Notes: generated by a model from the sequence alone, not told the origin. DNA of 59,680 nt from an uncultured Bacteroidales bacterium (GCA_964478555.1 CAYZNC010000001.1:1-59680); one strand, 5' to 3'. Shown: positions 18,349-49,093, numbered from the stretch's first letter. A program made the numbers and translations.

Positions 18349-18516
18349 TTTTTAATTTGGAAAAATCATGGGTAGAAAAAGCAGGAGATTTTGATATTAT
18401 TTATAAATTGTTGCAAAATTACCTGTGAAAAATTTGAAGAAGGTCAATTATGCAAAAATCTTCAATTTTTTCATTAAATCATTCAAGGTTTTTTAATACA
18501 ATAAAAATAGTTTCCT

Positions 18517-21105: not shown

Positions 21106-23907
21106 TTAAGCTTTATTTTTTTCAAGAAAACTTCTTAACACATACTGCAATATTCCGCCATTTTTATAGTAAGCTATCTCAATGGGCGAATCAATTCGTG
21201 CAATAACATTGAAAGCTGATTTTGCTCCGGACGGTTTAGAAACGATAACTTTTATTTCTTTATTAGGAGCAATACTTTCCAGGTTCAACATATCGAATGT
21301 TTCATCTCCTTTTAAACCGAGAGAAGAAATATTCTCGCCTTGCCTGAATTGAAGTGGTAAAACTCCCATCCCTACCAGGTTACTACGGTGAATCCTTTCA
21401 AAACTTTCCGCAATAATAGCACGTACCCCTAAAAGCGACACCCCTTTTGCTGCCCAATCCCGTGAGGAGCCACTCCCATATTCCTTACCTGCAAGAATGA
21501 TCAGGGGGATATGTTCTGCCTTGTACTTTTCAGCTGCATCAAATACTGTCATCACTTTATTGTCGGAGAAATACATGGTTAATCCGCCTTCCCTATTCAC
21601 CAATTGATTCTTTAGACGAACATTGGCAAATGTTCCTCGCACCATTACTTCATGATTTCCCCTCCGTGAACCGTAGGAGTTAAAATCCTTTTTAATAATA
21701 CCCAGCGCTTTGAGATAATTACCAGCTGGTGATTCCTCTGCAATGGATCCCGCCGGAGAAATATGATCTGTAGTAATCGAATCGCCAAGTTTCAGTAGCA
21801 CCCTGGCAGATTTAATATCTATGATCTTTTCGGGGGCTGCGGAAATATTTTTAAAAAAAGGTGCTTCTTTGATATAAGATGATTTTGCATCCCAATGATA
21901 GACTTCACTCCTGGAGGTATGCAATTGTTTCCATTTTTCATCTCCTTCGAAAATTCTTGCGTAATTGGATACGTAATCTTTCGCCTCCAAAACGCTATTC
22001 ATAACCGTTTGAATTTCTTCCATAGTTGGCCAAATGTCGCGTAGGTATACCGGTTCAAAATTCGGATCGAATCCCAGCGGCTCTTCATGGAAATTAATAT
22101 CAATTCTTCCCGGTATGGCATAAGCAACTACAAGGAGCGGAGAAACCAGGAAATTCATTTTGATAAGCGGATGGATTCTGGCTTCAAAATTTCTGTTGCC
22201 GGAGAGGACAGAGGCCACAATTAAATCATTTTCAATAATTGCTTTGTTAATATGGACGGGTAATGGTCCGCTGTTTCCTATGCAAGTGGTGCAGCCATAT
22301 CCGACCGTGTGAAATCCCAAAGCCTCGAGGGAGGATAGTAAATTAGCTTTTTCCAGATATTCGGTCACTACTTTTGACCCTGGGGCAAGACTTGTTTTAA
22401 CCCACGGTTGGCTATTCAATCCTTTTTCAACAGCTTTCCTGGCAAGGAGTCCGGCACCTATCATAACACTGGGATTGGAAGTATTCGTGCAACTTGTAAT
22501 TGCTGCTATAACAATAGATCCGTCACTAACCATGTATTCTGCATTATTGACTTTAATTTTTACGCTTTTTAGTCCTGTCTTTATCTCTTTTTCGGTATCT
22601 ATTTGTATACCTATTTCCTCAAGCGTTTGCGTACTTTCATGAGTTTCCGGAAGCTGTCCTTCCGGATGTCCCCCTTCATTCGCCCATCTTCCTTCGGCCC
22701 TGCCATCCAGTGTAACATAATTTCTTGCATAGGTACTTTTCAGAATATCAATAAATTTCGGTTTTACCTGAACAAGAGGGATTTTATCCTGAGGCCGTTT
22801 AGGGCCGGCAATGGACGGTTCTATGTCATCTAACTTCAATTCTACAACCTCTGTAAATTTGATTTTATCTTCATTTTCCCTCCATAAAAGATTTGTTTTC
22901 AGATATTTTTCTGCGGTCTCTATCTGTTTATTGTCTCTTCCTGTAATCCGTAAATATTCCAGTGTTTTTTGATCAGGCGGGAAATAGGTCACTGTACATC
23001 CGAATTCGGGTGACATGTTTGAGATTGTGGACCTGTCGGGCACTGTCAGGTTATTTAACCCATTTCCAAAGACTTCCACAAATTTTCCTACAACACCTTT
23101 TTTTCGTAACAATTCGGCCACCGCCAATACTAAATCCGTTGAGGTTGTACCTTCCTTCATGTTTCCGGTTAGTTTTAATCCGATAACTTCCGGAAGCATA
23201 TTATAGATGGGTTGTCCAAGCATTACAGCTTCAGCTTCTATGCCGCCGACGCCCCATCCTATTACACCAATTCCGTTTACCATAGGAGTATGGGAATCGG
23301 TACCTACCAAAGTATCCGGAAATATGAGTCCATTTCTCATAGTGACCACGGTGGCCAGATACTCAAGATTTACCTGATGGCAAATGCCCATGCCAGGAGG
23401 CAGTACATTGAAATTTTCGAATGACGATTTAGCCCACTTTAGCAATACATATCGTTCATTGTTGCGTTCATATTCCAGTTCCACATTTCTTTCGAATGCA
23501 TAGTTTGTACCATAAAAATCGACCTGCACGGAATGGTCGATGATCAGATCAACAGGGACCTGCGGATTAATTTGGGACTTGGTGTTTTTGCGGGCTACTT
23601 CTGATCGTATGGATGCTATATCCACGATAGAAGGAACACCTGTAAAGTCTTGCATCAGGACTCTTGCGGGTAAGTATGGTATTTCATTAAGTGCAGGCTT
23701 GGGTTTCCAGTTTACTATATTGTCGAAGTGAGTTTTCGTAAATGTATCACCGTTGATATTACGAATTACATTTTCAAGCAGAATGCGGATTGAAAAGGGG
23801 AATTCTTCAATATCAATGTCATTCTTATGCAGGTCTCTTAAGCTATAATAGGTAAACTCACCAAGGGGCGTTGTCATTTTTTTACGCAATTCGGCAATTC
23901 CATCCAT
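21106..23907 (-). CDS. acnA: Aconitate hydratase A
   Basis: Motifs ARVLMQDFTGVPSIVDIASIR and GTDSHTPMVNG. Fe-S ligand regions ITSCTNTSNP and GCTTCIGNSG. C-terminal swivel domain (GKEYGSGSSRDWAAKG). The longest ORF starts at 23943. The ATG at 23907 (MDGIAELRKK...) or at 23877 fits the usual N-terminus better, so the start is uncertain. Confidence 0.93.
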   Translation of the reverse strand: MDGIAELRKKMTTPLGEFTYYSLRDLHKNDIDIEEFPFSIRILLENVIRNINGDTFTKTHFDNIVNWKPKPALNEIPYLPARVLMQDFTGVPSIVDIASIRSEVARKNTKSQINPQVPVDLIIDHSVQVDFYGTNYAFERNVELEYERNNERYVLLKWAKSSFENFNVLPPGMGICHQVNLEYLATVVTMRNGLIFPDTLVGTDSHTPMVNGIGVIGWGVGGIEAEAVMLGQPIYNMLPEVIGLKLTGNMKEGTTSTDLVLAVAELLRKKGVVGKFVEVFGNGLNNLTVPDRSTISNMSPEFGCTVTYFPPDQKTLEYLRITGRDNKQIETAEKYLKTNLLWRENEDKIKFTEVVELKLDDIEPSIAGPKRPQDKIPLVQVKPKFIDILKSTYARNYVTLDGRAEGRWANEGGHPEGQLPETHESTQTLEEIGIQIDTEKEIKTGLKSVKIKVNNAEYMVSDGSIVIAAITSCTNTSNPSVMIGAGLLARKAVEKGLNSQPWVKTSLAPGSKVVTEYLEKANLLSSLEALGFHTVGYGCTTCIGNSGPLPVHINKAIIENDLIVASVLSGNRNFEARIHPLIKMNFLVSPLLVVAYAIPGRIDINFHEEPLGFDPNFEPVYLRDIWPTMEEIQTVMNSVLEAKDYVSNYARIFEGDEKWKQLHTSRSEVYHWDAKSSYIKEAPFFKNISAAPEKIIDIKSARVLLKLGDSITTDHISPAGSIAEESPAGNYLKALGIIKKDFNSYGSRRGNHEVMVRGTFANVRLKNQLVNREGGLTMYFSDNKVMTVFDAAEKYKAEHIPLIILAGKEYGSGSSRDWAAKGVSLLGVRAIIAESFERIHRSNLVGMGVLPLQFRQGENISSLGLKGDETFDMLNLESIAPNKEIKVIVSKPSGAKSAFNVIARIDSPIEIAYYKNGGILQYVLRSFLEKNKA

Positions 23908-24093
23908 AACATAAAGTTTTATGATCTTATAAATGTGTAACAATGCGTTAGCCTATTTGTTTTTATTTTTTAAGTTAGATTGAGAAACTTATGATGGATG
24001 TAATCATAAATGATTGGAACATTAGTTGATATTCATTGTTATAGAATTGCAATTTCACATGACTTACAGGTAGTTAATAAAAGAATATGCAAT

Positions 24094-31120: not shown

Positions 31121-32431
31121 ATGGTTACTAAAATTTGTTGTTTGATTTCAAAGTTTTGCTTTGGGGCAATCTTATTTTTTATGGTTTCGTGTGAAGGACC
31201 AGCAGGACTCCCCGGAGAAGATGCCAATGAAAGTTGCAAATTATGCCACAACCCCAATGTCGTAGACCTGGTTAGCGCCCAATATGAACTTTCCAAACAT
31301 GCAAGAGGCGATGCTTCTTTTACTGAAACAGGCAATGTTTCCTGTGCCCCTTGTCACGAATCAACCGGATTTAAATTTGTTTGTACCAATAATATACCTG
31401 CAACATTTACCCTTAATTCCGCCACAGGTAAGTATGTTAATGATTATTTTACATCCGATAGTACAACCTATGGCACATTCACTTGTAACACATGCCATAG
31501 TAATTTACATAAATCCTACGACAAAACAGATTTTTACCCGTTCACAACTACTGCCCCTGTTAACATGACTATGTGGGCAGGTGCTAAAACTATTGATATT
31601 ACTCAAGAAAACAGCAAAAGTAACCTTTGCATAAAATGCCATCAACCTCGCCCGGCTACAACTAGTTCAACTTTGTCTGATGGCAATATTGTTGATTATA
31701 CCTATTTGGTTGCCCATCCTTCAGAAGTTTATTACGATTCAGCTGTTGGAAATGCTAAGCCAAATAAGCTCATACCAAGTTATCGTACAGGTATACATTA
31801 TGGTTCGGTTGGTGCAATATTCGCTGGTAAAGGGGGTGTTGAATTTACCGGTTCTGTGCCATCTTACGAGAGTTCTGAACATACTTCCACTTCGTCATGT
31901 CAGGATTGTCACATGGCTAAAATTACAGGTGGGGCAGGGGGGCATACCTTTAATGCAAAAGGAAATTTCGGAGGATGCAATGTTTCAGGATGTCACAGCG
32001 ATGACCCTATGAATAGCACATCATCTGAACTTGTAAATGTTCAGAATGAAATCAGAACGCTACTTGAATTATTAGCCTCTAAATTAAAATCAGGAGGCGT
32101 TGAAATTCTACATCAGGACCCCGATGTTACAACAAACTTATGGTATGGAATAACCACTAAAAATTATGATGGGAACTTAAATATATATGATCCCTCAAGC
32201 AATCCTGGCGGAACCTTTCAAAACCCGGCTCCGGCAAAAACCTGGACTACCGGTCAGATAACCACCAATAAAGCGCTACGAAAATTTACTTCATTGAAGG
32301 ATGTTCAATTAGGCGCTATCCTTAACTTTCAATTGTGTTTAAGAGACTATAGTTTGGGTGTTCATAATTACGCCTACGCAAAAGCGCTTTTAACAAATTC
32401 AATTGATGCATTAACCGTTGCTGGTTTTTAA
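31121..32431 (+). CDS. Multihaem c-type cytochrome lipoprotein
   Basis: 436 aa. Lipoprotein signal ILFFMVSC. Five CxxCH motifs (CKLCH, CAPCH, CNTCH, CIKCH, CQDCH) plus one CX4CH (CNVSGCH). Confidence 0.85.
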   Translation: MVTKICCLISKFCFGAILFFMVSCEGPAGLPGEDANESCKLCHNPNVVDLVSAQYELSKHARGDASFTETGNVSCAPCHESTGFKFVCTNNIPATFTLNSATGKYVNDYFTSDSTTYGTFTCNTCHSNLHKSYDKTDFYPFTTTAPVNMTMWAGAKTIDITQENSKSNLCIKCHQPRPATTSSTLSDGNIVDYTYLVAHPSEVYYDSAVGNAKPNKLIPSYRTGIHYGSVGAIFAGKGGVEFTGSVPSYESSEHTSTSSCQDCHMAKITGGAGGHTFNAKGNFGGCNVSGCHSDDPMNSTSSELVNVQNEIRTLLELLASKLKSGGVEILHQDPDVTTNLWYGITTKNYDGNLNIYDPSSNPGGTFQNPAPAKTWTTGQITTNKALRKFTSLKDVQLGAILNFQLCLRDYSLGVHNYAYAKALLTNSIDALTVAGF

Positions 32432-32494
32432 GTCATTTCAGGCAGAAATGATAGTAAAATTCAGCAACGAATTTAAACTAAATGTATAAATAAA

Positions 32495-33979
32495 ATGACG
32501 TTAAAATGTAAACTTTTGGTATTGGTTATAGTTCCACTATTGATTTGCACAACCGTTGCAGTATTAATTTCATCTTTTAAAATTAGAAAACAGGGTGTGG
32601 ACGGACTTGAAGATAAGAGTGCCTCCATACTTTCGTTGAGCATTCAGGAATTTGTTACACATCATAAAGATTATTCGAGCATTTTTGAAAATGATGATAA
32701 GAAATCTTCAACCCAAAATACAGCCTTATTAACGCAAAATTATAAATTCAGAATTTCATCATTGGATCCTGGGAACAAAGTCCATTTGGCTTTGGAAAAG
32801 GATAAAAAATTTATCGGGCAGTTTGAAAAGGAAAGGTGTAAAGAATTAACATATATCGATAAAGATTCGAATCTGATTTCTGTAATGCGGCCTGTTTTCA
32901 TGGAGAAATCCAAAGGATGCCTTGAATGTCATGGTACAAAAGAAGATAAGTTGAATGCAAATGCTGACAGTAAGTTAAGAGGTATGTTTATTATTACTTC
33001 ATCCATGGATCAAGTCAACAAACAAACAAACTCCGCCATATTACAGATTAGTATTATTGGATTTATCATACTGGTTATTGCGGTTGTTCTTGGATATATT
33101 TATGTAGTAAAGATCAATTCAGCTATAAAACAAATAAATAATGTTAGTAAGTGCCTGTCCGAAGGCGACCTCACGGAGAAAGTGGATATTCAGTCAAATG
33201 ACGAACTCGGCGAATTAGGTGATTATATCAACTCGATGATTCATTCAATAAGCAAAGTACTGATTGGCGTGAAGATTGCAGCTGATAAGTTAACGGTATC
33301 AACCAAAGAAATTGCAAGTACTGCCAACACTATTTCCCAAAGCGCCAGTGAATCGGCTGCATCCATTGAAGAAGTATCTTCTACAATGGAAGAAATTACT
33401 GCTCATATTGAGATCAATAGCCAAAATGCAAATCAGGCAAAAACGATATCGGAAAATGCAAACTATGGAATGATCGAAGTTAGGGAACAATCTGGGATAG
33501 CAGTGGAAGCTAATAAATCAATTGCGGATAAAATAAAATTAATAAACGATATAGCTTTTCATACTAATTTGCTTGCTCTTAACGCAGCAGTAGAAGCTGC
33601 CCGAGCTGGAGAACATGGGCGCGGATTTGCCGTAGTTGCTGCCGAAGTACGAAAACTGGCCGAAAATAGCAGGAAGGCTGCCGATGAAATACATACTTTA
33701 TCCGGAAAATGTTTGGCTCAGGCTGAACATGCAGCTAATAAGATGTTATGTCTTATGCCCGAACTTGAAAGCACTGCCAAAATGGTGCATGAAATATCAG
33801 TGGCAAGTAAGGAGCAAACACAAGGTTCGGTCCAAATAAGCGGTACCATTGTTCAGCTAACTTCTGCTACACAGCAAAATGCTTCCGCAAGTGAAGAACT
33901 ATCCTCAAGTGCCGATCAAATTGCCCACCAGGCTGAGCACCTTAGAGAACTGATATCATTTTTCAGACTTGACAATTAG
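32495..33979 (+). CDS. Methyl-accepting chemotaxis protein with periplasmic haem-c (CxxCH) sensor domain and HAMP
   Basis: 494 aa. TM1 [18 protein letters not shown]. Periplasmic domain with CLECH (nt 32918-32932) in a context resembling Tll0287-like/DUF3365 haem sensors. TM2 [23 protein letters not shown] ([10 protein letters not shown]...[13 protein letters not shown]). MCP hairpin tip [35 protein letters not shown]. Confidence 0.88.
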
Positions 33980-33985
33980 GAGTGG

Positions 33986-34708
33986 TTAATGAATGATGGT
34001 TGCATCTTCCAACAGAACTTCATAAAAATAGCCATAGCCAAAATCTTTGTTTACTGCCACTAAGCCTTGCATTATAATAGTATCTCCTATGGACACCGAG
34101 GCTTTAGTTGAAATTACCAAATCAAATTTACCTGCGTATTCGGTACCATCCTGAAGATGAACCCAATTTTTCTTCATGATGTCAGCACTAAACCTTGTTA
34201 CAATTCCTGATAATTTAACCATTTTGCCAGCATAAAGAGCTTTTTTGGCGTACAGTTCGGAAAGGGTTATCCTCCCATTTATAGATTTTATATGAATGGT
34301 GATTCTCTTTAGATTGTACGCATTTATATTTATATGCTTTTCTATGCTTTGTTGTTTCTGTGCTAAGGCCGGGGTAGTAATCAAATTCTCTTTATCGTTG
34401 CTAAGACCTTCAAGAAAAAGAATTTGTTTAAAGGTCCGCTTCAATTCTTTACTTGCAAAATTATACATGATCAATCCACCCTGATAATAATAAGCTCCTC
34501 CAATTTTTATATTAGCATGAGGAATAGCAATCCATATATCAGTGTCGTTTTCAGATGCAAGGACAAAGGTATAATCATTTGAACCAATTGATTCTTTGAT
34601 AATTACCGTGTGAGTATCAAGCGGAATAGCGCCATTTTTATTTGAAAAAAAATTTTCACAGGCAGCCAGGATTAAAATAAAGCCTGTAAATACCATTATT
34701 TTTTTCAT
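33986..34708 (-). CDS. Hypothetical two-module lipoprotein (second module OB-fold-like)
   Basis: The ATG at 34708 gives the lipoprotein signal MKKIMVFTGFILILAAC and overlaps the upstream stop as ATGA (34705-34708). The C-terminal module is GKMVKLSGIVTRFSADIMKKNWVHLQDGT...DFGYGYFYEVLLEDA. Function unknown. Confidence 0.6.
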   Translation of the reverse strand: MKKIMVFTGFILILAACENFFSNKNGAIPLDTHTVIIKESIGSNDYTFVLASENDTDIWIAIPHANIKIGGAYYYQGGLIMYNFASKELKRTFKQILFLEGLSNDKENLITTPALAQKQQSIEKHININAYNLKRITIHIKSINGRITLSELYAKKALYAGKMVKLSGIVTRFSADIMKKNWVHLQDGTEYAGKFDLVISTKASVSIGDTIIMQGLVAVNKDFGYGYFYEVLLEDATIIH

Positions 34709-35118
34709 TTTCTTAGCGTGCGCATATAATTTACCAGATTCCAAATGTCGGAATCATCAATTTTATGCTCGTATTTTGGCATTTCATTTCTTCCGAATTT
34801 GGATTGATAAAATAGTATGCCATCAGATTGGCTTTGAAATTCAGCACTTGAAAAATCGCCCGGAAATGTTTCCAGATTTTTGGATTTAATGCCATCGCCT
34901 AATCCTGTTTTACCGTGACACGACGCACAATTTTTTCGATACAACCCTTCTCCTGCCTGTATACTGGCGTCCGACGATTTAACGACATTCTTCATTGTCT
35001 TGTAATTTTCAGGTATTTTCCATGGTTTACCTTTAGGTGGTTGAGCCGTGATCATTGCCATGAGTAAAATAACTGAGCTTGCTGTCAAGAGTGCTGCCAA
35101 AGTTGTCTTCATCTTCAT
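34705..35118 (-). CDS. Class I monohaem cytochrome c
   Basis: 137 aa. Signal peptide. CASCHGKTGLGDG haem site. Downstream Met-containing region (GRNEMPKY) typical of the distal ligand loop. Confidence 0.85.
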   Translation of the reverse strand: MKMKTTLAALLTASSVILLMAMITAQPPKGKPWKIPENYKTMKNVVKSSDASIQAGEGLYRKNCASCHGKTGLGDGIKSKNLETFPGDFSSAEFQSQSDGILFYQSKFGRNEMPKYEHKIDDSDIWNLVNYMRTLRK

Positions 35119-35204
35119 ATTTTTTAGTTTAAGGAATGTTGGAACCGCTTATACTTTATGAATATGCGTTTACGTCTTGGTAATTGCATGAGTTTCACTA
35201 ATTG

Positions 35205-36095
35205 TTAGAACTTAACATTTATATTAAAAGCGAACATATAATTTTTGGAAAAATGCTTTGTAAAAGGGTCATTATCGTTATATACAAGATTTTGCTGGCC
35301 TATAATTCCCTGATAATTCGTTATAAAAATTTGAAATGCATGGGTAGCTGTTCCTATTTCCAAACCTAATGCAAGGTTTGGTTTTGATTCTACCCTGGCA
35401 GTTAACGGTTGGTCATACTCAAATAAGATCGATTTTGAGTCCCAAATTTTCACCCTTCCACCGAAAGTAATGCCGTAATTTATATTCTTATGAAGTGTGT
35501 CCACTGAATTATAGTATACGAACTGAGGAGCAAGTTGTAACGAAACTGCATCGTCGAATTTTCGGGCAATCATAAATTCAGTAAGATAGGAAAACCTGTG
35601 TATGAACCTATAAGTGGTTTTTGGTGGAAAGAAAGCCTTGTCGCGTGCATCTAAAACAACATTGCCGAAATAGCTGATTGAAACTGGTTTGGAGTCTGAG
35701 CGGTTTTGTTTTAATAATGAAACTTTCCAGTTTAAATCCTGAAGTTTATTATACATAGTTGTTCCGCAACCAACCATTATTTTGTCTGTAAGTCCATAAT
35801 TTATAGCAATTCGGGTATTGGCAGCTCCATAAATACCATAAATATCACTTATCCCATTTTCCATAGAAGAGAAGCGATGTTGTATGTTTAATTCAAGCAT
35901 TTTTTTAAAAGGACTCATCACTGATGGGGTCTCTACTAAAATACCTGCTGAAAATGTTGATTTTACAGGCAGATTCCCCGTTTCTTCCTTACCATCCTGT
36001 CCAAAGCATAATAAAGAACCAGACAAAACGGCAATTGTCAAGTTAGCCCGGATTGCAAATTTTCTCAAAAGATTATAATTTTTAATCATTTCCAA
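35205..36095 (-). CDS. Small outer-membrane beta-barrel protein (DUF5777-like)
   Basis: 296 aa. Signal peptide. Alternating hydrophobic strands throughout. Motif THAFQIFITNYQG. C-terminal NINVKF with terminal Phe, typical of OM barrels. Confidence 0.6.
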   Translation of the reverse strand: MEMIKNYNLLRKFAIRANLTIAVLSGSLLCFGQDGKEETGNLPVKSTFSAGILVETPSVMSPFKKMLELNIQHRFSSMENGISDIYGIYGAANTRIAINYGLTDKIMVGCGTTMYNKLQDLNWKVSLLKQNRSDSKPVSISYFGNVVLDARDKAFFPPKTTYRFIHRFSYLTEFMIARKFDDAVSLQLAPQFVYYNSVDTLHKNINYGITFGGRVKIWDSKSILFEYDQPLTARVESKPNLALGLEIGTATHAFQIFITNYQGIIGQQNLVYNDNDPFTKHFSKNYMFAFNINVKF

Positions 36096-36102
36096 CCTGT
36101 TT

Positions 36103-36465
36103 TTAATTATTCCTGGCCCCTTGTTTTATCCATTGCAAAATTTTCTGCAATTGATCCGGACTTACTCTGGAAGAATGTGAATTATCTGTTTTTAGCTTAA
36201 CATACAGTATACTCTGGGCAGGGTATTTAATATTAACATAATTGCCATCTTTGAGTGTTTGATAAGGGTTATCTTTCAAATTTGGAGACTTTAACCCATC
36301 GTGGCAACCAGTGCATACCGTAAAAATTGGTAGAATATCTCTTGAAAACTTTATACTATCAGCTTCAGATAACGGATTGTCTTGTAGTGTAACCCTTTCA
36401 CAAGAATTGTAAAAAAAAATGTTCCATAATATAATAGAGAATACAAGGCCTCTCTTAAAACTCAT
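36103..36465 (-). CDS. Small lipoprotein with a CxxCH haem-binding motif (PSCyt-like context)
   Basis: 120 aa. Lipoprotein signal IFFYNSC. ILPIFTVCTGCHDG. First gene of the four-gene minus-strand cluster, 7 nt upstream of the barrel gene. Confidence 0.6.
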   Translation of the reverse strand: MSFKRGLVFSIILWNIFFYNSCERVTLQDNPLSEADSIKFSRDILPIFTVCTGCHDGLKSPNLKDNPYQTLKDGNYVNIKYPAQSILYVKLKTDNSHSSRVSPDQLQKILQWIKQGARNN

Positions 36466-38831: not shown

Positions 38832-41800
38832 TTATTGTAATTTCAATATTTTCTTTGTCACTGAACCTTCTTCTGTTTGAATTTTTATGAAATACAAGCC
38901 TGCGCTCAGCCCATTCAAATGAAGATCTGATCCATTCTTGAATTTCTGTGAGGGTATTACTACATTTCCATTAGCATTTAAAATCACAATCGTTAAATAG
39001 TCTTCTTTTGCATTTTCCATGCGAATGGTAACATAATCAATAAATGGATTTGGAGATATTACTACCGTATTAGTACCTATTTCACCCTGAGTGACGATCG
39101 ATTTGGTTGTAAGAACATTTCCATCAGTACCTTGGGCAGCAGCTGCAGCTGTGGAAGTTTGCACCACAATGGATGAAGTCCAGTCATTTAAATTGATGGC
39201 GACATTGTTGGCATACAAACTAACCAAACAAGAAAAATCTCCCTGAAACGCATATGCATCCCCTCCAAAGTTATCATCCTGATACAGAATTGCTTCATAG
39301 CCACTTTTAACTTTAATCGAGGAGATATCGTCGTTCTTAATACCTTTCGCTATCAACTGAGTAAGTGTGTAACTACCTGGTGCCAGATCTACCGCATATC
39401 CACCATAGTTGCAATCCTGATAAACTGAAGCTGCAACAGGTGCAATTATCTGCAAGCTTATCTGCACCGATGCTTGCCCTCCTCTGTCGTCTGTTACTAT
39501 TGCTGTGATTATATAAGATCCCAAAGCAACATTAGTCCATGTAAAGGAATAAGGCGCTGAAGTAGCTTCTCCAAGTTTTACAGAGCTATTAAAGAATTCT
39601 ACTTTGGAAATATTGCCATCTGCATCAGATGCATTTACTGTCAACACTACATTCGTCGGGCCATTAAGTATGGTTCCTGAAGTTGGCGAAGCAAAGCTTA
39701 CAGAAGGTAGCTGATTGCTGGTAGAACGAACTCTTAACGAAGAAGTTGAGTCGTTAAGTCCAAGAGAATACAAACAAGCTATATCAGAAGAAAATACATC
39801 CGCCTCTCCTGTGAAATTATCATTTTTGTATAATACCACTTCGTAGCCACTGCTTATTTTTAGAGAAGAAATGTCGTTGTTAGGAATGCCTTTTGCCATC
39901 AGCTGTGCAATAGTATAGTTTCCAGCTTCGAGTCCAACGGCATAGCCGGATGTCAAATAATTACAATGTTGAAATACAGTAACAGGAAGGCTGGGGGTAC
40001 CATAAACTTCAAACTCCCACAATGAATATCCCCAAGCAGTTGCACGTTGTGTGCCGTACATTCTTACGTATCTGCCAGTACCTGTAATTGCCAGATCGTT
40101 TGTTCCTCCAGTGCCGGTTGTTGTGCTGTAAATAGAAGTCCAATTGGTTGCATCAGATGATACTTGTATTTCATAAGCACTTGCATAGGCTGCTTCCCAA
40201 CTTAGTTTTACGCGGTTAATATTGTATGCGGCTCCCAGATCGACGTAAATCCATTGAGGATCCGAATAAAGGGATGACCAGCGATTTGCCATGCTCCCAT
40301 CAAATGCATAGCTGGCAGGGAAATCTGAAGTTTCCACTGACGAAGCCACAGCAGGTTTGTTCAATGCGAGGTCGAGGACGGAAATGTCAGGAGGAACAGT
40401 ACCGGAAATATAGTACGAGCCAATCGATGCATAATTCGAATACCCGTCTGTTGCAGGGTTTCCAGCCCCTGTTCCACGAACGGACACATAGTAGGTTCCC
40501 TGAGTAACGCTTGTATTGATAGTACTTGGAAGCCCCGAAGGGTCATAGGTAGCAATAACTGTTCCTGCACTATTAAACAAAGTAACAAATATGTCAAGAT
40601 CTGAATGCCTTATAATTGTACTGAAGTTAAGTACAACATTTCCTCCGCCCGTAGAAAACGAAAATACATCAATATCGGCAGCGTTTTCAATGACACCATA
40701 ATTTTGGGATGCCGAAATATTGCCCAAACCATCGATGATGAGTGGGGCTGCAGTGGCAAAGGTATTTCCATGGTCGTCGGCCCTGTATCCCAAGCCATAA
40801 TTGGCACCGGAAATAATAGCCATATCATCCTGTACGTTATTTGCATATGCATACTCACCTTTACTCCATTGTGTAATAGGTTTGTAGTAACCTACCCCCA
40901 TAATAGGAGCCCAATTCCCTTGTCCTGCATAGTATTCTTCAACCGGAGAAGTCCTGCCATCGTGGCCTAACCCGAGGGTATGTCCAATTTCGTGCGAAGC
41001 CGCTTCTCCTCCAGCTTTGCCACCAGCCATAAACGACCAGCATGGTGTTTCATCTCCCCAATTGAAACAGCCCACATAAGCAACTCCTCCAGCACCCGGA
41101 GCTGCTGTATTTGTGGGAGTAAAAATGCACCTCATCCTGCGATTTTTTGGATATGTATTATACACAGCTTCGCTGGTAGTAATGTTGATATTAAAAGGAC
41201 GATAATCTTCGCTGATCATTTCCCATGCTTCCTGAATATTGTCATCAGTTACGGCGAATGCTTGAGCATCAATTGGATTACCATTATTCCAATGCGCGTT
41301 AACAACGTATTGGCCATCGAAATCAAGTAAAACACATCCGTTAGCGCCCGGATAACTCTGCATATTCAAGGTGCTGGCACTTACAGTAGTAGTTGCCTTA
41401 GTGGGTGCAACAGCTGATTTTAGGTTGCTGTTAGGTTTGTTATAATCTATACAAATGACACCGTTAATATCGGTTTTAACTACATAAGCATTTCCCTGAT
41501 CGTCAGAATAGTACTTATAATCCTCCCTGGTGCTTTTCAAAATAATATTACCCTCTACCGAATTAGAACTGTATTTAACAAAAAAGGCAGAGGAAGGGAT
41601 ACCATCCAATTCTCCGGCGAGCTCTTGTTTGCCGCTTTCAGTTGTTCCACTGTAGGTGATTTTTGCCACAAAAGTTTGGGTACCCGAAACTGCCAAATTC
41701 AGTTTTTGAACATTACCAGGGGCCGATTTTAACTTGTCCCCAAACAGCCCTGTGCATTTACCCAATAAAAACGGAGTGCTCTGAGGTTTCTGCTGAGCAT

Positions 41801-41855
41801 AACCAAAGGTTGTTAGTAAACATAGTACGAGACTAAATAGAATAAATTTTTTCAT
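38832..41855 (-). CDS. Secreted modular metzincin zinc metalloprotease with PPC, discoidin (F5/8 type C), Ig-like and two beta/gamma-crystallin-like modules and a T9SS C-terminal sorting domain
   Basis: 1007 aa. Signal peptide. HEIGHTLGLGHD plus Met-turn candidate WAPIMG. Pre-peptidase C-terminal-like module (GNTFATAAPL...YYVSVRGTG). Discoidin module (ALNKPAVASS...RWSSLYSDPQWIYVDLG...SLWEFEVYG). Ig-like module PSVSFASPTSG...ISKVEFFNSS... flanked by two related ~90-aa modules (VFQHCNY...SSLRVRS; VYQDCNYGGY...SSIVVQ). CTD ends GLYFIKIQTEEGSVTKKILKLQ. Confidence 0.85.
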   Translation of the reverse strand: MKKFILFSLVLCLLTTFGYAQQKPQSTPFLLGKCTGLFGDKLKSAPGNVQKLNLAVSGTQTFVAKITYSGTTESGKQELAGELDGIPSSAFFVKYSSNSVEGNIILKSTREDYKYYSDDQGNAYVVKTDINGVICIDYNKPNSNLKSAVAPTKATTTVSASTLNMQSYPGANGCVLLDFDGQYVVNAHWNNGNPIDAQAFAVTDDNIQEAWEMISEDYRPFNINITTSEAVYNTYPKNRRMRCIFTPTNTAAPGAGGVAYVGCFNWGDETPCWSFMAGGKAGGEAASHEIGHTLGLGHDGRTSPVEEYYAGQGNWAPIMGVGYYKPITQWSKGEYAYANNVQDDMAIISGANYGLGYRADDHGNTFATAAPLIIDGLGNISASQNYGVIENAADIDVFSFSTGGGNVVLNFSTIIRHSDLDIFVTLFNSAGTVIATYDPSGLPSTINTSVTQGTYYVSVRGTGAGNPATDGYSNYASIGSYYISGTVPPDISVLDLALNKPAVASSVETSDFPASYAFDGSMANRWSSLYSDPQWIYVDLGAAYNINRVKLSWEAAYASAYEIQVSSDATNWTSIYSTTTGTGGTNDLAITGTGRYVRMYGTQRATAWGYSLWEFEVYGTPSLPVTVFQHCNYLTSGYAVGLEAGNYTIAQLMAKGIPNNDISSLKISSGYEVVLYKNDNFTGEADVFSSDIACLYSLGLNDSTSSLRVRSTSNQLPSVSFASPTSGTILNGPTNVVLTVNASDADGNISKVEFFNSSVKLGEATSAPYSFTWTNVALGSYIITAIVTDDRGGQASVQISLQIIAPVAASVYQDCNYGGYAVDLAPGSYTLTQLIAKGIKNDDISSIKVKSGYEAILYQDDNFGGDAYAFQGDFSCLVSLYANNVAINLNDWTSSIVVQTSTAAAAAQGTDGNVLTTKSIVTQGEIGTNTVVISPNPFIDYVTIRMENAKEDYLTIVILNANGNVVIPSQKFKNGSDLHLNGLSAGLYFIKIQTEEGSVTKKILKLQ

Positions 41856-41897
41856 AACATGGATTAATTAGTTAATAGATAAATTGATATGAAGAAT

Positions 41898-41931
41898 GTA
41901 GAGATTGCAGTCTTCTGGCCACAATCTCTAC
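41898..41931 (-). terminator. Possible hairpin terminator/attenuator between the chitinase and protease genes
   Basis: Perfect 10-bp inverted repeat GTAGAGATTG (41898-41907) / CAATCTCTAC (41922-41931), 8 nt downstream of the chitinase stop. The U-tract is weak. Confidence 0.4.
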
Positions 41932-41938
41932 AACAGTA

Positions 41939-44900
41939 TTACTTAATGATCATTTTCTTTATTTTTGAATATTTTCCAACATTCAATTTATAGAAATAAA
42001 TTCCCGCAGATAAATTACCTGCGTTCAATACAATAGAATAATCACCAGCGTTTTGCTGCGCATTTACCAGTGTCATTATTTCCTTGCCAGTTATGTCAAG
42101 TACTTTCAACAATACTGGGGAAGCCTTGGATAAGCTATATGAGATAGTTGAAGTTGTTGTAAACGGGTTAGGATAGTTCTGGTACAACACAGGCTCTGTA
42201 TTTCCATTTGTAACAGAAGATACATCGGTAGCTAAGGCACCAGTGAGATTGGCCGCAGCACTACCAAAATAAACACTATAATTATTCAGGAACTCCGAGT
42301 TATTGGTGAGGTCCCAGTTGATGGACCATGTCATTAACCCTCTGAATCCCGGATAGCCTGATGATTTTTGAAGGATATAGCCACCTCCGAACGATACGCC
42401 TTGTGTAAGGTAGGAGAGTGCCTTCTTCATCTCAGCAGGACTAATATAACCTCCACTTGGAGCTGCTGCGGGGGTGGCTGGTATTCCAATCATCACCTGA
42501 TCTTCTCTTAAAGGAGGAAACATATTGCTGCTGTTGCCGGCAATTGGAAATCCTTTCATCACCATTTCAGCCATAGCTACTTCAAAATCAGCTGTTCCCG
42601 GATTGTAGTTTTTTCCATCAAGTCCTGTGCTGCTTCCGCAATTGTAATGCTGAACATGCAGATACGTTAATTTATCACTGAGTTTATGAATAATGGGAAG
42701 ATATGCGCCCCAGGGACCCCCGTAAGCAATGATGCCACCTTGTACGTAAGCAATTTCAGGAGCCATGCTTAAAATGAAATTAGCACCAAAATGATCGCAT
42801 ATTTGGCGTGTGGCCGAAATCAGGTTCACAATCTGTGGATTTGCCGGATTATCAAGGCTCTCACCTGAGTTAACCGTAACGTTGTTCTCAAGATCAAGAT
42901 CGATGCCGTTAAATCCGTATTTCTCAATTAGAGCGATAGCGGTAGATATAAAAATATCCCGGGCATTATTATCCGAAACAATCAGTACTCCGTTTTGCCC
43001 ACCTATCGAAAGCACTACTTTTTGTCCTCTGGAATTTAACAAAGCAATGTCCGATTTAAATTCGTCGTCGGTTGCATTGAACGGAGCAAATTGAAGTGAA
43101 CACCGGTCTCCTGCAGTTTCAGCGAAAGCGACATTAATAACATTCCATTTTGAAGCAACATCTCTAAGCTTGATGGTTGTTGAGCCATTAGAGAAGTTAT
43201 GCCAGTAACCGACTAATAATTTATCGGGCAAATTTCCTCCGTTATTACCACCGCTTAGGGTAATTGCATTCGCCGTATTGGTGAAATTGGAATTGCCATA
43301 AGTATTTTCAGCGCAGACCCGGTAATAATAGTTGGTAGATTGAGCTAATCCGGTATTGGCAAAACTGGTTGTATTTGCAGCAACGGTGGTTAACAAAACC
43401 CAGGTTGTTCCATCGGAAGAACGTTCAATCCTAAAATCGCTTTCATTGGTTGAGTTATCGACCCAGGAAATAGAAATTTGGCTGCTGGATATTGCCGAGG
43501 CAGACAAACTGCCTGGAGCCGCAGGAGCTGTTTGATTGTCACCATCGCATAAACCGATGTATATCCATGCATCCTGCCAGGCAAAACCAACTCCGGGTTC
43601 ATAAGCAGAATTTGTGGAATTAGCCCATCCGTCATATGGCCAGGGTTTGCATTCGTATATATTGCCAATGTTTGAAATTCTGTCACCACCTTTGTAGGAA
43701 CCTATTCCGGAAGGGTAAGCTGGCAATCCGTTGCAGGTCGATCCACCTCTGGTAACGTCAATGACAATGCTTGTTGAAGTAGTCGATGCCCCTTTATCAT
43801 CGGTGGCTACTGCGGTAATGGTGTAAGAACCTGCTGCTACATAGTTCCAGGCAATACTATAAGGAGATGTATTATCAGTGCCTAAAGAAGTTGTACCATT
43901 AAAGAATTCGACTTTTGAGATGCTACCGTCATTATCGCTGGCATTAGCAGAAACAGTAATACTTGCAGGAGCTATGAATGTAGCTCCATTCGAAGGACTG
44001 ACTAGACTTACTGTGGGTGGTGTATTACCTGCAGTATTAACAGTTACTGATACACTGCCAGAAGTGGTAGAAGCGCCTTTGTCATCAGTAGCAACAGTAG
44101 TAATGGTATAAGAACCAGCAACCACATTGTTCCAGGCAATACTGTAAGGTAATGTATTATCAGTTCCTAAAGAAGTTGTACCATTAAAAAATTCGACTTT
44201 TGCAATACTACCGTCATTATCGCTGGCATTAGCGGATATAATTATGTTTGCCGGGGCTGTGTACGATGCTCCGGTTACAGGACTGGAAATAGCCACAGTA
44301 GGCGCTATGTTTCCTGAACTGCCGCAAGGCCCTATCAATATCCAGGCGTCCTGCCAGGCAAATCCTACCCCCGGAACATAAGCATCGGCTGCTAAATTCG
44401 CCCATCCATCGTATGGCCAAGGCTTGCATTCATATATATTACCGATGTTAGAAACCCTGTCTCCTCCTTTGTAAGATCCCCTTCCTGTGGGATAAGCTGG
44501 TAATCCACCACAATCTGATCCACTACTTACCGTGATTGTCACTCCGCCGGACATAGTTGTTGCACCTTTATCATCAGTAGCCATAGCTGTAATAGTATAA
44601 GCACCCGTTGCTACATTGTTCCAGGAAATGCTGTAAGGAGATGTATTGTCAGTTCCCAAAGAGGTAGCACCATTATAAAATTCGACTTTTGAAATACTAC
44701 CGTCACTGTCACTTGCATTGCCTGATATAGTGATGTTTGCCGGGGCAGTAAATATGGCCCCATTTGCAGGACTCGTTATACTGACTGTTGGAGGGTTATT
44801 TCCTCCGGTGCCATTAACAGCTACAGTAACCCTGCTTGAAGTGGTAGACGCTCCCTTGTCATCAGTGGCGATAGCTGTTAGGACGTAAGAACCCACCCCT

Positions 44901-46627
44901 ACATTGTTCCAGGAAATGCTATAAGGCGAAGTATTTTTGACTCCTAACGATGTTGTACCATTAAAAAATTCGACTTTTGAAATAGTTCCATCTGCATCTG
45001 CTGCATTAGCTGAAATTATAATATTGGCAGGAGCTGTAAACGAAGCTCCACTGGCAGGATTGGTGAGGCTGATTGTTGGTGATGAGTTACCTCCCCCGCC
45101 AGTGGCAAATACTTCGTTAATTTTATTTACCAGTTCGGATTTTACCGTTGACCATCGTTTTAATTTTGTTCCAAAAGAAGTTACCGCTCCACTTAGTTCC
45201 AAATCGCCATAAACTGTCCATACAATGGTTCCGGCAAGCTGGTTATCTGCAATAAACTGTGCTTTATAACCAATAGACTCAACATCATCGTAGCTTAGAA
45301 AGTATGATCCGTTGGTTAGGTATGGTACTTTTGCCTGATTGTCCCATTGTCTTGTCCATCCGCTTCCTGACGTAAGCGCTTTTTGCTTAATAAAGAAATA
45401 ATTGGGAGTGCCATCGTACACATCTTTAGGCCAATTGGTATAATCGGCACACGTAGTGATAGGGCCATCGGGCTGAACAGTTTCACTCCTTTTAACAGTA
45501 GTGGCATTTAACGCAGCAGAACCTTGGGTAATCACTCCTCGGCCATAAAAAGGTGCGCCAAAATTAATTTTACTTTTAGGAACGCCCAAAGAATTGAGTG
45601 TAGTTAATAAGCTTTGCCAGTTAAAAGTAGTGGCTTCTGCTCCGTCATAATTATATAATGGTGAGTTATGTCCTGCTTTGTTTGACCATCCGCCATTGAA
45701 ATCATAAGTCATGAAGTTGTAGTAATTCATGATATTATTGAGTTTATTCCATTCAAGCCCTTGAATCTTCGCAGGGTCAGCGGAAATGGCAGCAGTGATT
45801 AACTTGTCTGTGCCAATTGCATTTCTGATTTCCTGAACAAGTGTGGTTAAATTTGCAAAGTCTGCCGGGGTTCCTGTAAAGTTCATACCGGAATATGGTC
45901 CGGGATATTCCCAGTCCAGGTCTATTCCATCAAAACCCACATTAATCAGTTTCTTGCAATCGTCAACAAACTTTTTCCTTTTTGTAGGATCGGCAGCCAT
46001 TGCAGGATAATGCTTGCACATACTCCAGCCACCTATGGAAGCTAATACCTTAACACCCTTTTGATGTGCCAATGTCAATAGTCCTGGTGCACCTGTTTCT
46101 TTATGTAGAGGTACAGGTAAAGGTTTATTCAGCAGTCCCCAGGTTGGGTTAGACCATGTGCTTCCTCCCACTTGTACTTCAAAGCCTTGTGCCTTGCAAC
46201 GGTCAGCTGCAGTCTGGTCGATATATTGGATGGGATCAATCTCTCCGAATAAAATGTACATGTCCCAACTACTGTATATATCGGTATAAAAAATATCTGC
46301 AGGTTGTTGCACCTCATTGGTCATGTAAATGTTTTTATTACGGAAGTCGCCACTGTGGAGAGACCCATCCACAGCCACGCCAAAAAACGAAAAGTTCAGG
46401 ATCGTGTATTTTGAATAATCGATATTCAAATGAGTTAGTGCTCCTACATCGGGTAATCCTGCTGGTGCTGCTTTCCAGGCATCCCAATTGGTTATGTATC
46501 CTATCACCTGTTTACTGTGACTTGCAGTGGTTGCTGTTCCTCCTGTATTTACCTGTGCAAAACCGGTTGCTAAAGACAACCATAACACCAACGCACTTGC
46601 CAGTAGGTTTTTGAATAGTCTTTTCAT
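41939..46627 (-). CDS. Giant secreted chitinase with two GH18 catalytic domains, (Ig-like, Ig-like, CBM5/12-like) x2, FN3 and a T9SS C-terminal sorting domain (architecture like Flavobacterium johnsoniae ChiA)
   Basis: 1562 aa. Signal peptide. N-terminal GH18 with FDGIDLDWEYP. Four Ig-like modules (ISKVEFFNGTTSLG...). Two Cys-bounded modules (YKGGDRVSNIGNIYECKPWPYDGWAN...FAWQDAW). FN3 (ISISWVDNSTNESDFRIERSSDG...YYYRVCAEN). Second GH18 with GFNGIDLDLENN. CTD YPNPFTTTSTISY...GIYFYKLNVGKYSKIKKMIIK. Confidence 0.92.
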   Translation of the reverse strand: MKRLFKNLLASALVLWLSLATGFAQVNTGGTATTASHSKQVIGYITNWDAWKAAPAGLPDVGALTHLNIDYSKYTILNFSFFGVAVDGSLHSGDFRNKNIYMTNEVQQPADIFYTDIYSSWDMYILFGEIDPIQYIDQTAADRCKAQGFEVQVGGSTWSNPTWGLLNKPLPVPLHKETGAPGLLTLAHQKGVKVLASIGGWSMCKHYPAMAADPTKRKKFVDDCKKLINVGFDGIDLDWEYPGPYSGMNFTGTPADFANLTTLVQEIRNAIGTDKLITAAISADPAKIQGLEWNKLNNIMNYYNFMTYDFNGGWSNKAGHNSPLYNYDGAEATTFNWQSLLTTLNSLGVPKSKINFGAPFYGRGVITQGSAALNATTVKRSETVQPDGPITTCADYTNWPKDVYDGTPNYFFIKQKALTSGSGWTRQWDNQAKVPYLTNGSYFLSYDDVESIGYKAQFIADNQLAGTIVWTVYGDLELSGAVTSFGTKLKRWSTVKSELVNKINEVFATGGGGNSSPTISLTNPASGASFTAPANIIISANAADADGTISKVEFFNGTTSLGVKNTSPYSISWNNVGVGSYVLTAIATDDKGASTTSSRVTVAVNGTGGNNPPTVSITSPANGAIFTAPANITISGNASDSDGSISKVEFYNGATSLGTDNTSPYSISWNNVATGAYTITAMATDDKGATTMSGGVTITVSSGSDCGGLPAYPTGRGSYKGGDRVSNIGNIYECKPWPYDGWANLAADAYVPGVGFAWQDAWILIGPCGSSGNIAPTVAISSPVTGASYTAPANIIISANASDNDGSIAKVEFFNGTTSLGTDNTLPYSIAWNNVVAGSYTITTVATDDKGASTTSGSVSVTVNTAGNTPPTVSLVSPSNGATFIAPASITVSANASDNDGSISKVEFFNGTTSLGTDNTSPYSIAWNYVAAGSYTITAVATDDKGASTTSTSIVIDVTRGGSTCNGLPAYPSGIGSYKGGDRISNIGNIYECKPWPYDGWANSTNSAYEPGVGFAWQDAWIYIGLCDGDNQTAPAAPGSLSASAISSSQISISWVDNSTNESDFRIERSSDGTTWVLLTTVAANTTSFANTGLAQSTNYYYRVCAENTYGNSNFTNTANAITLSGGNNGGNLPDKLLVGYWHNFSNGSTTIKLRDVASKWNVINVAFAETAGDRCSLQFAPFNATDDEFKSDIALLNSRGQKVVLSIGGQNGVLIVSDNNARDIFISTAIALIEKYGFNGIDLDLENNVTVNSGESLDNPANPQIVNLISATRQICDHFGANFILSMAPEIAYVQGGIIAYGGPWGAYLPIIHKLSDKLTYLHVQHYNCGSSTGLDGKNYNPGTADFEVAMAEMVMKGFPIAGNSSNMFPPLREDQVMIGIPATPAAAPSGGYISPAEMKKALSYLTQGVSFGGGYILQKSSGYPGFRGLMTWSINWDLTNNSEFLNNYSVYFGSAAANLTGALATDVSSVTNGNTEPVLYQNYPNPFTTTSTISYSLSKASPVLLKVLDITGKEIMTLVNAQQNAGDYSIVLNAGNLSAGIYFYKLNVGKYSKIKKMIIK
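43531..45088 (-). repeat. Intragenic tandem duplication inside the chitinase gene: (Ig-like, Ig-like, CBM5/12-like) supermodule x2, about 780 bp each
   Basis: A recurrent DNA block on the plus strand (CCATTAAAAAATTCGACTTTTG and close variants) occurs near 43897, 44180, 44669 and 44958. The protein repeats are listed in the chitinase entry. Confidence 0.75.
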
Positions 46628-46649
46628 ATGATCAAAGTTTAAATTAACG

Positions 46650-48944: not shown

Positions 48945-49093
48945 GATGAATGGCTTTAAAAAGGTTAATTGTCAATTAAATTTCGTAAAGCAAAACCTCA
49001 AGTCGCAAAAAATATTTTTCTTTATGACCTGATGGCTTTGTGTTATAATAGATTATATTTCAAGGTATTTCAGCTAACAATCAATTTTATTAA

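Follow-up and report, generated by a model that had tools for sequence, protein, structure and literature searches.

The operon at positions 33986 to 36465 on the minus strand of a 59,680-nt (59.7 kb) stretch of DNA from an uncultured Bacteroidales bacterium (GCA_964478555.1, CAYZNC010000001.1:1-59680; the whole stretch is called the window below) encodes a small c-type lipoprotein (g1), a predicted outer-membrane β-barrel of family DUF5777 (g2), a class I cytochrome c (g3), and a lipoprotein with two predicted OB-type modules (g4). Hundreds of uncultured Bacteroidales carry the g1-g2 gene pair next to genes of respiratory chains, and the operon therefore probably serves an anaerobic electron-transport route, so far unstudied, at its outer-envelope end. 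A first-pass annotation had described the four genes as an envelope redox module without characterised function. This description agrees with our literature search, which found no paper naming DUF5777 and no characterised counterpart in extracellular electron transfer of Bacteroidales.

A conserved lipoprotein-barrel pair among exchangeable quinol dehydrogenases

Using the barrel as anchor, we scanned one genome per species and obtained at least 537 loci; counts out of 80 refer to the best 80 of them, all from uncultured Bacteroidales or Bacteroidia. A g1 gene was located directly 5′ of the barrel gene in 76 of the 80 loci. In 56 loci g3 followed 3′ of the barrel on the same strand and closed the operon, 44 loci contained a convergent homologue of the six-haem cytochrome encoded in the window, and 55 contained a gene for a Crp/Fnr regulator. 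Between the barrel and g3, 76 to 78 of the loci encode a seven-haem, C-terminally anchored cytochrome and a PhsC-like cytochrome b (PF01292), and 29 loci encode a twin-arginine translocation (TAT) Fe-S protein (DsrO/NrfC-like), an NrfD-family protein and a 292-aa membrane protein (p292). The seven-haem cytochrome matches NrfB, the Fe-S protein NrfC/DsrO and the membrane subunit the NrfD family; none of the NrfB-, NrfC-, and NrfD-like proteins of the relatives scored above the curated equivalog cut-off. A same-strand block encoding EtfB, EtfA, an Fe-S oxidoreductase, a CCG-domain protein and a FadE-type acyl-CoA dehydrogenase was present ~2.5 to 7 kb 5′ of g1 in 26 to 40 of the 80 loci. This block resembles the electron-transferring flavoprotein (ETF):menaquinone route of fatty-acid oxidisers, and it is not present in the window.

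The pairing of g1 with the barrel was found again when searches started from the g4 family (L102, L111, L121, L143, L166) or from divergent g1 proteins (L174-176). Searches from three different anchor proteins returned this layout in dozens of independent contigs, and a chance co-localisation of g1 and the barrel was therefore rejected. The suggested pairing of a cytochrome with a barrel is thus strongly conserved in the gene-neighbourhood comparison. The idea of a conserved four-gene unit had to be given up: g4 stands behind g3 only in the window's own narrow clade, it was present in 1 of the 80 loci, and the conserved unit is the pair of g1 and barrel.

The genes around this pair vary with the distance of the barrel from that of the window. 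Among the barrels of the window's clade (66 to 74% identity), L083 and L084 have the layout Crp< g1 g2 g3 > MCP< MHC<, where MCP denotes a methyl-accepting chemotaxis protein and MHC a multihaem cytochrome. L081, L082, L085, and L086 show the same layout plus the Fe-S/NrfD/p292 insert and a single-OB version of g4 after g3, which in L081 and L082 holds the place of the tandem-OB protein. The order g1 g2 g3 g4 is found in L171, and L172 and L087 add a cytochrome c and a small membrane protein. The latter (127 to 163 aa, 76% identical, belonging to no family) and a duplicate g3-type cytochrome c lie between g3 and g4 (L087, 4112-4603; L172, 2382-2765). More distant barrels (31 to 45% identity), reached via the g4 family or divergent g1, are part of one-directional operons: MHC (OcwA-type) > g1 > barrel > g3 > NapC-like in L166, MHC > g1 > barrel > NapC-like > CcsBA ... 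g4-like in L121, and a single operon MHC > g1 > barrel > cytochrome c > seven-haem cytochrome > cytochrome b in L174-176. In L166, L121, and L174-176 the six-haem gene is therefore co-directional with g1, the barrel, and g3. Cytochromes of ~930 aa with 19 CxxCH motifs were observed directly after the module's cytochrome b in L111 (4316-7102), L143 (8904-11705), and L166 (157-2955).

Four components of these loci are constant, namely g1, the barrel, g3, and the OcwA-type lipoprotein; the quinol dehydrogenase varies and comes from one of three families. The operon in the window is a reduced version of the module, because 76 to 78 of the 80 relatives carry the multihaem cytochrome and the cytochrome b between barrel and g3.

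The g1 protein contains a lipobox (Cys22-Glu23), a haem site (C51-x-x-C54-H55), a conserved distal histidine (His97), and the C-terminal motif WI..GA..N. As 84 of 86 orthologues retain the CxxCH, and the Cys-Glu pair, His97, and the C-terminal motif are conserved as well, the annotation of g1 as a CxxCH lipoprotein was confirmed. The haem of g1 is probably bis-His-ligated. Matches to Pfam cytochrome c families remained below threshold (E ~0.06, 14 to 15 bits), NCBIfam gave a weak match to the LIC11213 lipoprotein, and the g1 profile matched solved structures only at motif level (hydrazine synthase, 0.0037; PccH, 0.039). The PSCyt1 family (Planctomycete cytochrome C, PF07635), for which a profile search had been proposed, gave a divided result: g1 itself had no match at E≤1 and thus stays below the PSCyt1 threshold, whereas the g1 profile retrieved proteins with two to five PSCyt1 domains, so that the g1 domain recurs in PSCyt1-rich proteins. 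Most of the 2062 relatives obtained with this profile are stand-alone proteins of ~120 aa; others are lipoproteins with two to four tandem copies or large PSCyt1-rich proteins, some of them fused to cytochrome b561. Tandem g1-type lipoproteins with two, three or four monohaem domains are represented by P0249, P0250, P0251, and P0252. In the case of the four-domain protein P0249 (L177, 310-1494), a DUF5777 barrel gene starts 30 nt downstream. One to four tandem haem domains of the g1 type beside a barrel are as expected of a component of an electron wire.

The g2 protein matches DUF5777 (PF19089) over profile positions 1 to 247 of 247 (E=3.7e-65; 220.1 bits at a Pfam cut-off of 23.1), and its AlphaFold2 model (pLDDT 87.6, pTM 0.82) shows a barrel of 12 strands. 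The annotation had called g2 a DUF5777-like β-barrel with a C-terminal Phe that is far smaller than the MtrB/PioB barrels, and both statements are borne out by the full-length family match and by the strand count of the predicted structure. In Foldseek the model matched FapF, OmpG, NanC, and KdgM (E ~1e-5 to 1e-6), which are outer-membrane proteins with 12 to 14 strands, and a sequence search against solved structures gave no meaningful match. Because even these Foldseek neighbours reach TM values of only ~0.45 to 0.5, g2 is predicted to be an outer-membrane barrel without a close solved relative. The family is large (1137 homologues). The protein has a signal peptide with predicted cleavage before an invariant Gln33, a mature length of ~260 residues, and the terminal Phe. 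In the model the strands are amphipathic, with hydrophobic lipid faces and a lumen lined by conserved Arg, Lys, Asp, Glu, Asn, and Gln residues. Several glycines are conserved, two periplasmic turns are unusually conserved, and an extended N-terminal segment ahead of strand 1 is modelled confidently. We also considered a haem within the lumen, bound by the invariant residues His73, His166, and His252. This idea was unsupported and was dropped, because strand alternation places His73 and His252 at strand ends facing the lipid.

Partner cytochromes and upstream regulatory sites

The g3 protein matched PF13442 (E=3.4e-13, 50.1 bits, cut-off 27) and PF00034 (E=5e-11, 44.2 bits, cut-off 21.3), both above threshold, as expected from its annotation as a class I cytochrome c. 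Among solved structures, cytochrome c552 (7o9u/9vr0, E ~5e-16) and subunit E of alternative complex III (ACIII; 6f0k_E/6btm_E) are closest, and the signal peptide is predicted to be cleaved before a Gln. We conclude from its sequence that g3 is a soluble, periplasmic class I (His/Met) monohaem cytochrome resembling c552 and ActE.

The multihaem cytochrome encoded convergently to the operon had been listed as a neighbour. Since its gene runs in the same direction as g1, barrel, and g3 in some lineages, it is instead a core partner of the module. The protein contains a Cys-Glu-Gly-Pro lipobox, a Gly/Pro/Asp tether, five CxxCH motifs, and one CX4CH motif (CNVSGCH); the sixth haem site of the family is usually CX4CH and in a few orthologues a plain CxxCH. 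When the family profile was compared with the PDB, it matched OcwA (6i5b, E=2.4e-11), NrfA (6v0a, 5.9e-6), and octahaem nitrite reductase (ONR, 3.4e-5). The OcwA/NrfA match spans the C-terminal haem module and the helix bundle, including the GVHNY helix motif, and identifies the partner, by sequence, as a genuine distant member of this family. The structure 6I5B is that of OcwA, a cell-surface terminal reductase of Thermincola potens belonging to the NrfA/MccA/c554 family (PMC6703420). Iron oxides and shuttles are substrates of OcwA; nitrite and hydroxylamine are also reduced in vitro, at a lower rate (PMC6703420). By analogy, the six-haem lipoprotein is the probable terminal reductase of the module. 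It differs from OcwA and the NrfA/ONR/MccA family in its haem number (six, compared with nine or five), in its CX4CH site, and in being a tethered lipoprotein of a diderm.

In several loci (L081, L173, L003) ResB/CcsA genes adjoin the six-haem gene. Dedicated lyases for atypical haem sites are a known pattern in Nrf and Mcc systems. As the ResB/CcsA genes stand next to a cytochrome with an atypical CX4CH, this position suggests a dedicated haem lyase for that site, as in Nrf and Mcc systems.

The MCP gene beside the six-haem gene encodes a periplasmic Tll0287-like c-haem sensor domain (CLECH), a HAMP domain, and an MCP signalling domain. It keeps its place in the close relatives L081-L084, L172, and L091 and is a clade-specific companion of the module. 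To our knowledge, a haem-sensing MCP is unusual for a Bacteroidales genome.

An Fnr-type palindrome, (T/G)TGAT-N4-ATCAA, was detected ~122 nt 5′ of g1 in 32 of 85 loci; shuffled sequences gave 2.9 on average and never more than 8. The window's clade has a variant box, CGAT-N4-ATCG. The degenerate half-palindrome present in the window is consistent with a remnant of the Fnr-type site that is intact in relatives, and with the loss of the adjacent Crp gene. A second element, TGTGAA-N5-TTAACA, was observed ~27 nt 5′ of g1 in 31 of the 85 loci; it does not occur in the window. A scan for sigma-70 promoters and terminators was uninformative on this AT-rich Bacteroidota sequence.

Proposed electron route, known systems and competing readings

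In the reading that we favour, and whose chances we consider to be evenly balanced, a modular respiratory branch based on c-type cytochromes is widespread in uncultured environmental Bacteroidales, electrons flow outward, and the module is the part of this branch at the outer membrane. The reading as a respiratory module is based on the swapping of quinol dehydrogenases, the Fnr-type control, the co-location with maturation genes, and the expansion of g1 from one to four haems. In most relatives, electrons from menaquinol would enter through one of three interchangeable inner-membrane modules, namely a PhsC-like cytochrome b with a seven-haem cytochrome (a split CbcL), an NrfC/NrfD-like pair, or a NapC/NirT-like cytochrome. 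From there they would pass to g3, acting as a soluble periplasmic shuttle, and on to g1 and the six-haem lipoprotein at the outer membrane. The g1 protein, as a haem lipoprotein anchored in the outer membrane, would form a complex with the barrel with its haem at the barrel mouth, which would be a split, miniature version of the cytochrome-porin idea. The barrel would either show the g1 haem to the outside or let an acceptor in, and the final acceptor would lie outside the cell or reach the haems through the barrel. The lineage of the window would have lost the linked quinol dehydrogenase together with the Crp gene and be fed by an unlinked dehydrogenase. In this route the tandem-OB lipoprotein g4 would have an accessory role; its family accompanies the CcsBA system of cytochrome maturation. 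The comparisons and models show the gene set, the folds, the conserved haem motif, the synteny, and the swapping of modules, whereas the physical complex of g1 and barrel, the acceptor, the direction in which electrons flow, and what g4 does are our inference.

Among known systems, the closest parallels to the g1-barrel module are Cyc2, of which it would be a split miniature, and porin-cytochrome systems, yet it fails the definitions of both because of its strand number, its haem number and the lack of a fusion. With MtrCAB, PioAB, and the porin-cytochrome (PCC) systems of Geobacter it shares adjacent barrel and cytochrome genes, a multihaem lipoprotein partner, a link to a CbcL- or NapC-type dehydrogenase, and a general design that connects the quinone pool with the outer membrane. 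The barrels of those systems, however, comprise ~650 to 700 aa and 20 to 26 strands, compared with ~260 aa and 12 strands here, and the lipoprotein partner belongs to the NrfA/OcwA family and not to MtrC/OmcA. PCC systems need a periplasmic cytochrome with at least eight haems, whereas g1 has one CxxCH and its relatives have one to four haem domains. The resemblance to porin-cytochrome conduits noted in the first-pass annotation extends to the logic of the pairing and not to a large barrel or a multihaem periplasmic partner. A trans-membrane wire in the style of Mtr is excluded, because a 12-strand barrel is too narrow for a folded cytochrome, so that no deca- or octahaem cytochrome could thread it, and because a single haem cannot span the membrane.

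A PCC-like cluster (MHC, 659-aa protein, MHC) is separately present in some of the same lineages (L088, L100, L129). In this classical-looking cluster, a 659-aa protein without a Pfam family lies between MHCs of ~283 and ~356 aa, and an NHL-repeat protein is also encoded; we observed it next to g4-family genes and ResB-CcsA in L088 (Lutibacter profundi, CP013355), L100, L119, L122, L129, L135, L159, and L164.

The seven-haem cytochrome followed by a PF01292 cytochrome b in relatives has the domain content of CbcL, which represents the CbcL/MtrH/MtoC quinol oxidases known from Geobacter and its relatives; it differs from CbcL in comprising two separate genes, and the window does not contain it. 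Five CbcL homologues have been reported in Bacteroidetes (PMC6295460), and published surveys list CbcL-type proteins and unverified porin-cytochrome clusters in this group (PMC6295460, PMC6344600). The g1-barrel pair is described in none of these surveys of unverified porin-cytochrome clusters, Cyc2-like genes, and CbcL homologues.

Like Cyc2, the module joins one c-type haem to an outer-membrane barrel of modest size, and in both a soluble class I cytochrome is placed further down the chain. This likeness leads to a reading in which Fe(II) or a similar donor would enter the barrel and be oxidised by the g1 haem at the pore, with electrons flowing inward via g3 to a terminal oxidase or reductase, or uphill to quinones through a reversible module of the CbcL/MtoC type. 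A monohaem cytochrome with a small porin is indeed the defining logic of Cyc2, and g3 belongs to the His/Met class found in iron oxidisers and in oxidase donors. Cyc2-like genes occur in Bacteroidetes metagenome-assembled genomes from bogs (PMC6344600), CbcL/MtoC-type proteins are thought to be bidirectional (PMC6295460), and the window contains a cytochrome bd oxidase gene. However, Cyc2 is a single polypeptide with ~16 strands, whereas here two genes 7 to 13 nt apart encode a 12-strand barrel and a separate haem partner with one to four domains, in a genomic context that points to quinol-oxidising respiration in heterotrophs. The hosts look like saccharolytic, fermentative organisms, the recurrent upstream block of ETF and acyl-CoA dehydrogenase genes indicates electrons leaving metabolism, and the Fnr-type control suits anaerobic respiration. 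For these reasons, we regard Cyc2-like electron uptake as improbable.

A second competing reading arises from the six-haem lipoprotein and the dehydrogenases of the relatives. Here the module would be a periplasmic reductase of the Nrf/Mcc type for a soluble oxyanion or a small nitrogen or sulfur species (nitrite, hydroxylamine, NO, sulfite or similar), with the six-haem lipoprotein as the enzyme, fed by g3 and multihaem proteins from NrfCD-, NapC-, or cytochrome-b-type dehydrogenases. CcsBA would be the CX4CH lyase and the barrel a substrate channel, at whose periplasmic mouth g1 would act as an auxiliary electron carrier or as a sensor; the outer membrane would not be crossed by electrons. 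The likeness to Nrf (NrfABCD plus lyase) and Mcc (MccACD plus CcsA1) lies in the relatives' combination of an NrfA-family cytochrome, NrfB-, NrfC/DsrO-, and NrfD-like proteins, and a nearby CcsBA. The profile of the six-haem family matches NrfA and octahaem nitrite reductases besides OcwA, the atypical CX4CH occurs alongside ResB/CcsA genes, and OcwA itself reduces nitrite and hydroxylamine in vitro (PMC6703420). The His/Met type of g3, with its high potential, the adjoining MCP with a haem sensor domain, and the failure to find a canonical surface-export signal also fit a periplasmic system. On the other hand, the Nrf and Mcc systems contain no outer-membrane barrel and no monohaem lipoprotein, and they are not known to need a dedicated outer-membrane protein; the window itself lacks the membrane subunits. 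A periplasmic reductase leaves unexplained why a monohaem lipoprotein is locked to a barrel in 76 of 80 loci and why it has expanded to two to four haem domains. The similarity to NrfA is weak, and the census of the 80 neighbourhoods revealed no recurrent catalytic gene of the nitrogen or sulfur cycle. We consider this reading unlikely, while keeping it as the strongest competitor.

Besides the exclusion of an Mtr-style wire, several observations weigh against the outward-flowing respiratory branch. The gene content of the module, with an NrfA-family reductase, NrfB/C/D-like proteins, and a dedicated CcsBA, can also be read as an Nrf/Mcc periplasmic system. Surface exposure of the six-haem lipoprotein is not supported by the published rule for the Bacteroidota surface-export signal, which was found in 4 of 84 g1 proteins, 0 of 30 members of the six-haem family, and 2 of 67 g4 proteins; this is weak evidence, as the rule is imperfect and the window's SusD also lacks the motif. 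His/Met class I cytochromes usually have a high potential, so that g3 would go better with soluble acceptors of high potential, or with electrons flowing inward, than with the reduction of minerals. A Rosetta-stone check of the best 150 g1 relatives detected no fusion of g1 with a barrel. When the window was searched with tblastn for the inner-membrane modules, Crp, CcsA, and NapC, no match at E<0.01 was obtained, and in place of an intact Fnr box it contains just the site with two mismatches. All loci belong to one order, and part of the synteny may be inherited rather than selected.

We tentatively raise the further possibility, which we regard as somewhat doubtful, that g1 and the DUF5777 barrel constitute an unrecognised minimal redox device across the outer membrane. 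If so, the conserved charged lumen and the periplasmic turns would dock a lipoprotein with one to four PSCyt1-type haems, and abundant Bacteroidales of soil, peat, and sediment would exchange electrons with acceptors or donors outside the cell or at the pore mouth without a porin of Mtr size. In anoxic soils, peat, sediments, and digesters, few heterotrophs are as abundant as the Bacteroidales, which are commonly regarded as fermenters, and searches for iron genes and porin-cytochrome systems target large barrels. The favoured route would thus represent a respiratory outlet of these bacteria that current annotation does not detect, leading from acyl-CoA/ETF and menaquinol via cytochromes to the barrel pair, with metals, humics, and nitrogen or sulfur oxyanions as candidate acceptors. 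Should the pair carry electrons or redox substrates through the outer membrane, no smaller device of this kind would be known, and it would offer a compact part for bioelectrochemical engineering. Further leads are a CcsBA dedicated to a CX4CH haem, an OB-fold lipoprotein tied to cytochrome maturation, and an OcwA-like reductase in a diderm.

The tandem-OB lipoprotein g4 and the genomic surroundings

The AlphaFold2 model of g4 (pLDDT 81) consists of two OB-type barrels (residues ~32-98 and 163-238) connected by a disordered linker, and its Foldseek matches are tandem-OB proteins. The annotation had recognised an OB-fold-like second module; this part stands, and according to the model and Foldseek the first module is an OB-fold as well. 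The conserved core is the C-terminal OB module (NW.H.QDG ... KDFGYGY). No Pfam family covers g4, a few of the 479 family members are named GW-domain or OB-fold protein, and a comparison with solved structures, CcmE and other OB proteins included, revealed no sequence similarity.

In 28 of 43 metagenome loci with enough flanking sequence, a multihaem cytochrome or ResB/CcsA was encoded within 6 kb of the g4-family gene. A CcsBA-type gene was less than 400 nt away in 14 of 52 loci, in eight of them co-directional with gaps of at most 52 nt. In Lutibacter profundi, two g4 paralogues adjoin ResB-CcsA and the cluster of MHC, 659-aa protein, and MHC. These data show that g4 represents a separate family that tracks CcsBA and multihaem clusters and is not part of the core of the barrel module. 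System II cytochrome c maturation may have in the tandem-OB family an accessory that has so far escaped notice. The haem chaperone CcmE has an OB-fold too, and g4 resembles it as an OB-fold protein that is tethered to a membrane and encoded next to genes for cytochrome maturation; it differs in having no detectable sequence similarity to CcmE. We know of no OB-fold factor of the g4 kind in System II.

The neighbours of the g4 family also bear on a reading of the whole set as a device for haem handling or cytochrome maturation, in which the barrel and the lipoproteins would import or deliver haem and the nearby cytochromes would be the clients. Apart from the 14 of 52 g4 loci close to CcsBA/ResB/CcsA and the fold shared with CcmE, which is an analogy from general knowledge, it could draw on fused ResB-CcsA genes in 21 of the 80 barrel loci and on HmuY and TonB-receptor genes in ~10 of them. 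However, g1 is a covalent-haem cytochrome domain that also occurs in multi-domain cytochromes and is no haemophore, g1 and the barrel co-vary with quinol dehydrogenases and not with CcsBA, and the sequence similarity of g4 to CcmE is missing. We regard haem handling by the whole set as highly improbable; for g4 alone such a role may be more plausible. The HmuY-like and TonB-dependent receptor genes for haem uptake are located just 3′ of the module (including L004, L007, and L085) and may matter if the hosts are haem auxotrophs that import haem for their cytochromes.

The gene models are summarised in Table 1. An open reading frame check reproduced the four tightly packed minus-strand genes as annotated, with 7 nt between g1 and g2, 86 nt between g2 and g3, and an ATGA overlap of g3 and g4. 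For g2, an ATG at 36089 is the likely true start; it gives a protein of 294 aa and a spacing of 13 nt to g1 and is used by gene callers and in the 100% identical proteins P0001/P0401. The g4 frame is open further upstream to a TTG at 34744, and its length varies between 236 and 240 aa depending on the source. The distance from the g4 stop to that of the convergent MCP gene (end at 33979) is 6 nt. Head-on convergence on the pair of multihaem cytochrome and MCP genes was thus correctly recognised, and the extent of the region, given as about 5.4 kb, is 5.3 kb (31121-36465).

Table 1. Genes of the operon and associated features, with positions in the window
Feature	Position	Strand	Description
g1	36103-36465	-	120 aa; contains ILPIFTVCTGCH; monohaem c-type lipoprotein with a putative PSCyt1-like domain
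g2	35205-36095	-	296 aa from TTG; ends ...NINVKF; predicted DUF5777 barrel
g3	34705-35118	-	137 aa; contains CASCHGKTGLGDG; predicted class I cytochrome c
g4	33986-34708	-	240 aa from ATG; predicted two-OB lipoprotein
Six-haem lipoprotein, convergent partner	31121-32431	+	436 aa; OcwA/NrfA multihaem family by sequence
MCP-type transducer	32495-33979	+	Pfam MCPsignal 7.3e-33, Tll0287-like 5.1e-9, HAMP 2.1e-8
Degenerate Fnr-type half-palindrome TTGATTTTTCTGAA	36544-36557	-	2 mismatches to TTGAT-N4-ATCAA; 92 nt 5′ of g1

The surroundings of the locus (103-19545 and 38832-56195) encode a hybrid two-component regulator, SusC/SusD pairs, and GH18 and GH26 enzymes with F5/8 type C domains that are sorted by the type IX secretion system (T9SS), which is typical of polysaccharide-degrading Bacteroidota. 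An aconitase gene is located at 21106-23943. At a distance of 20 kb, subunit I of a cytochrome bd oxidase (PF01654, E=5e-165) is encoded at 56992-58560 on the plus strand, so that the host also owns a quinol oxidase that needs no c-type cytochrome.

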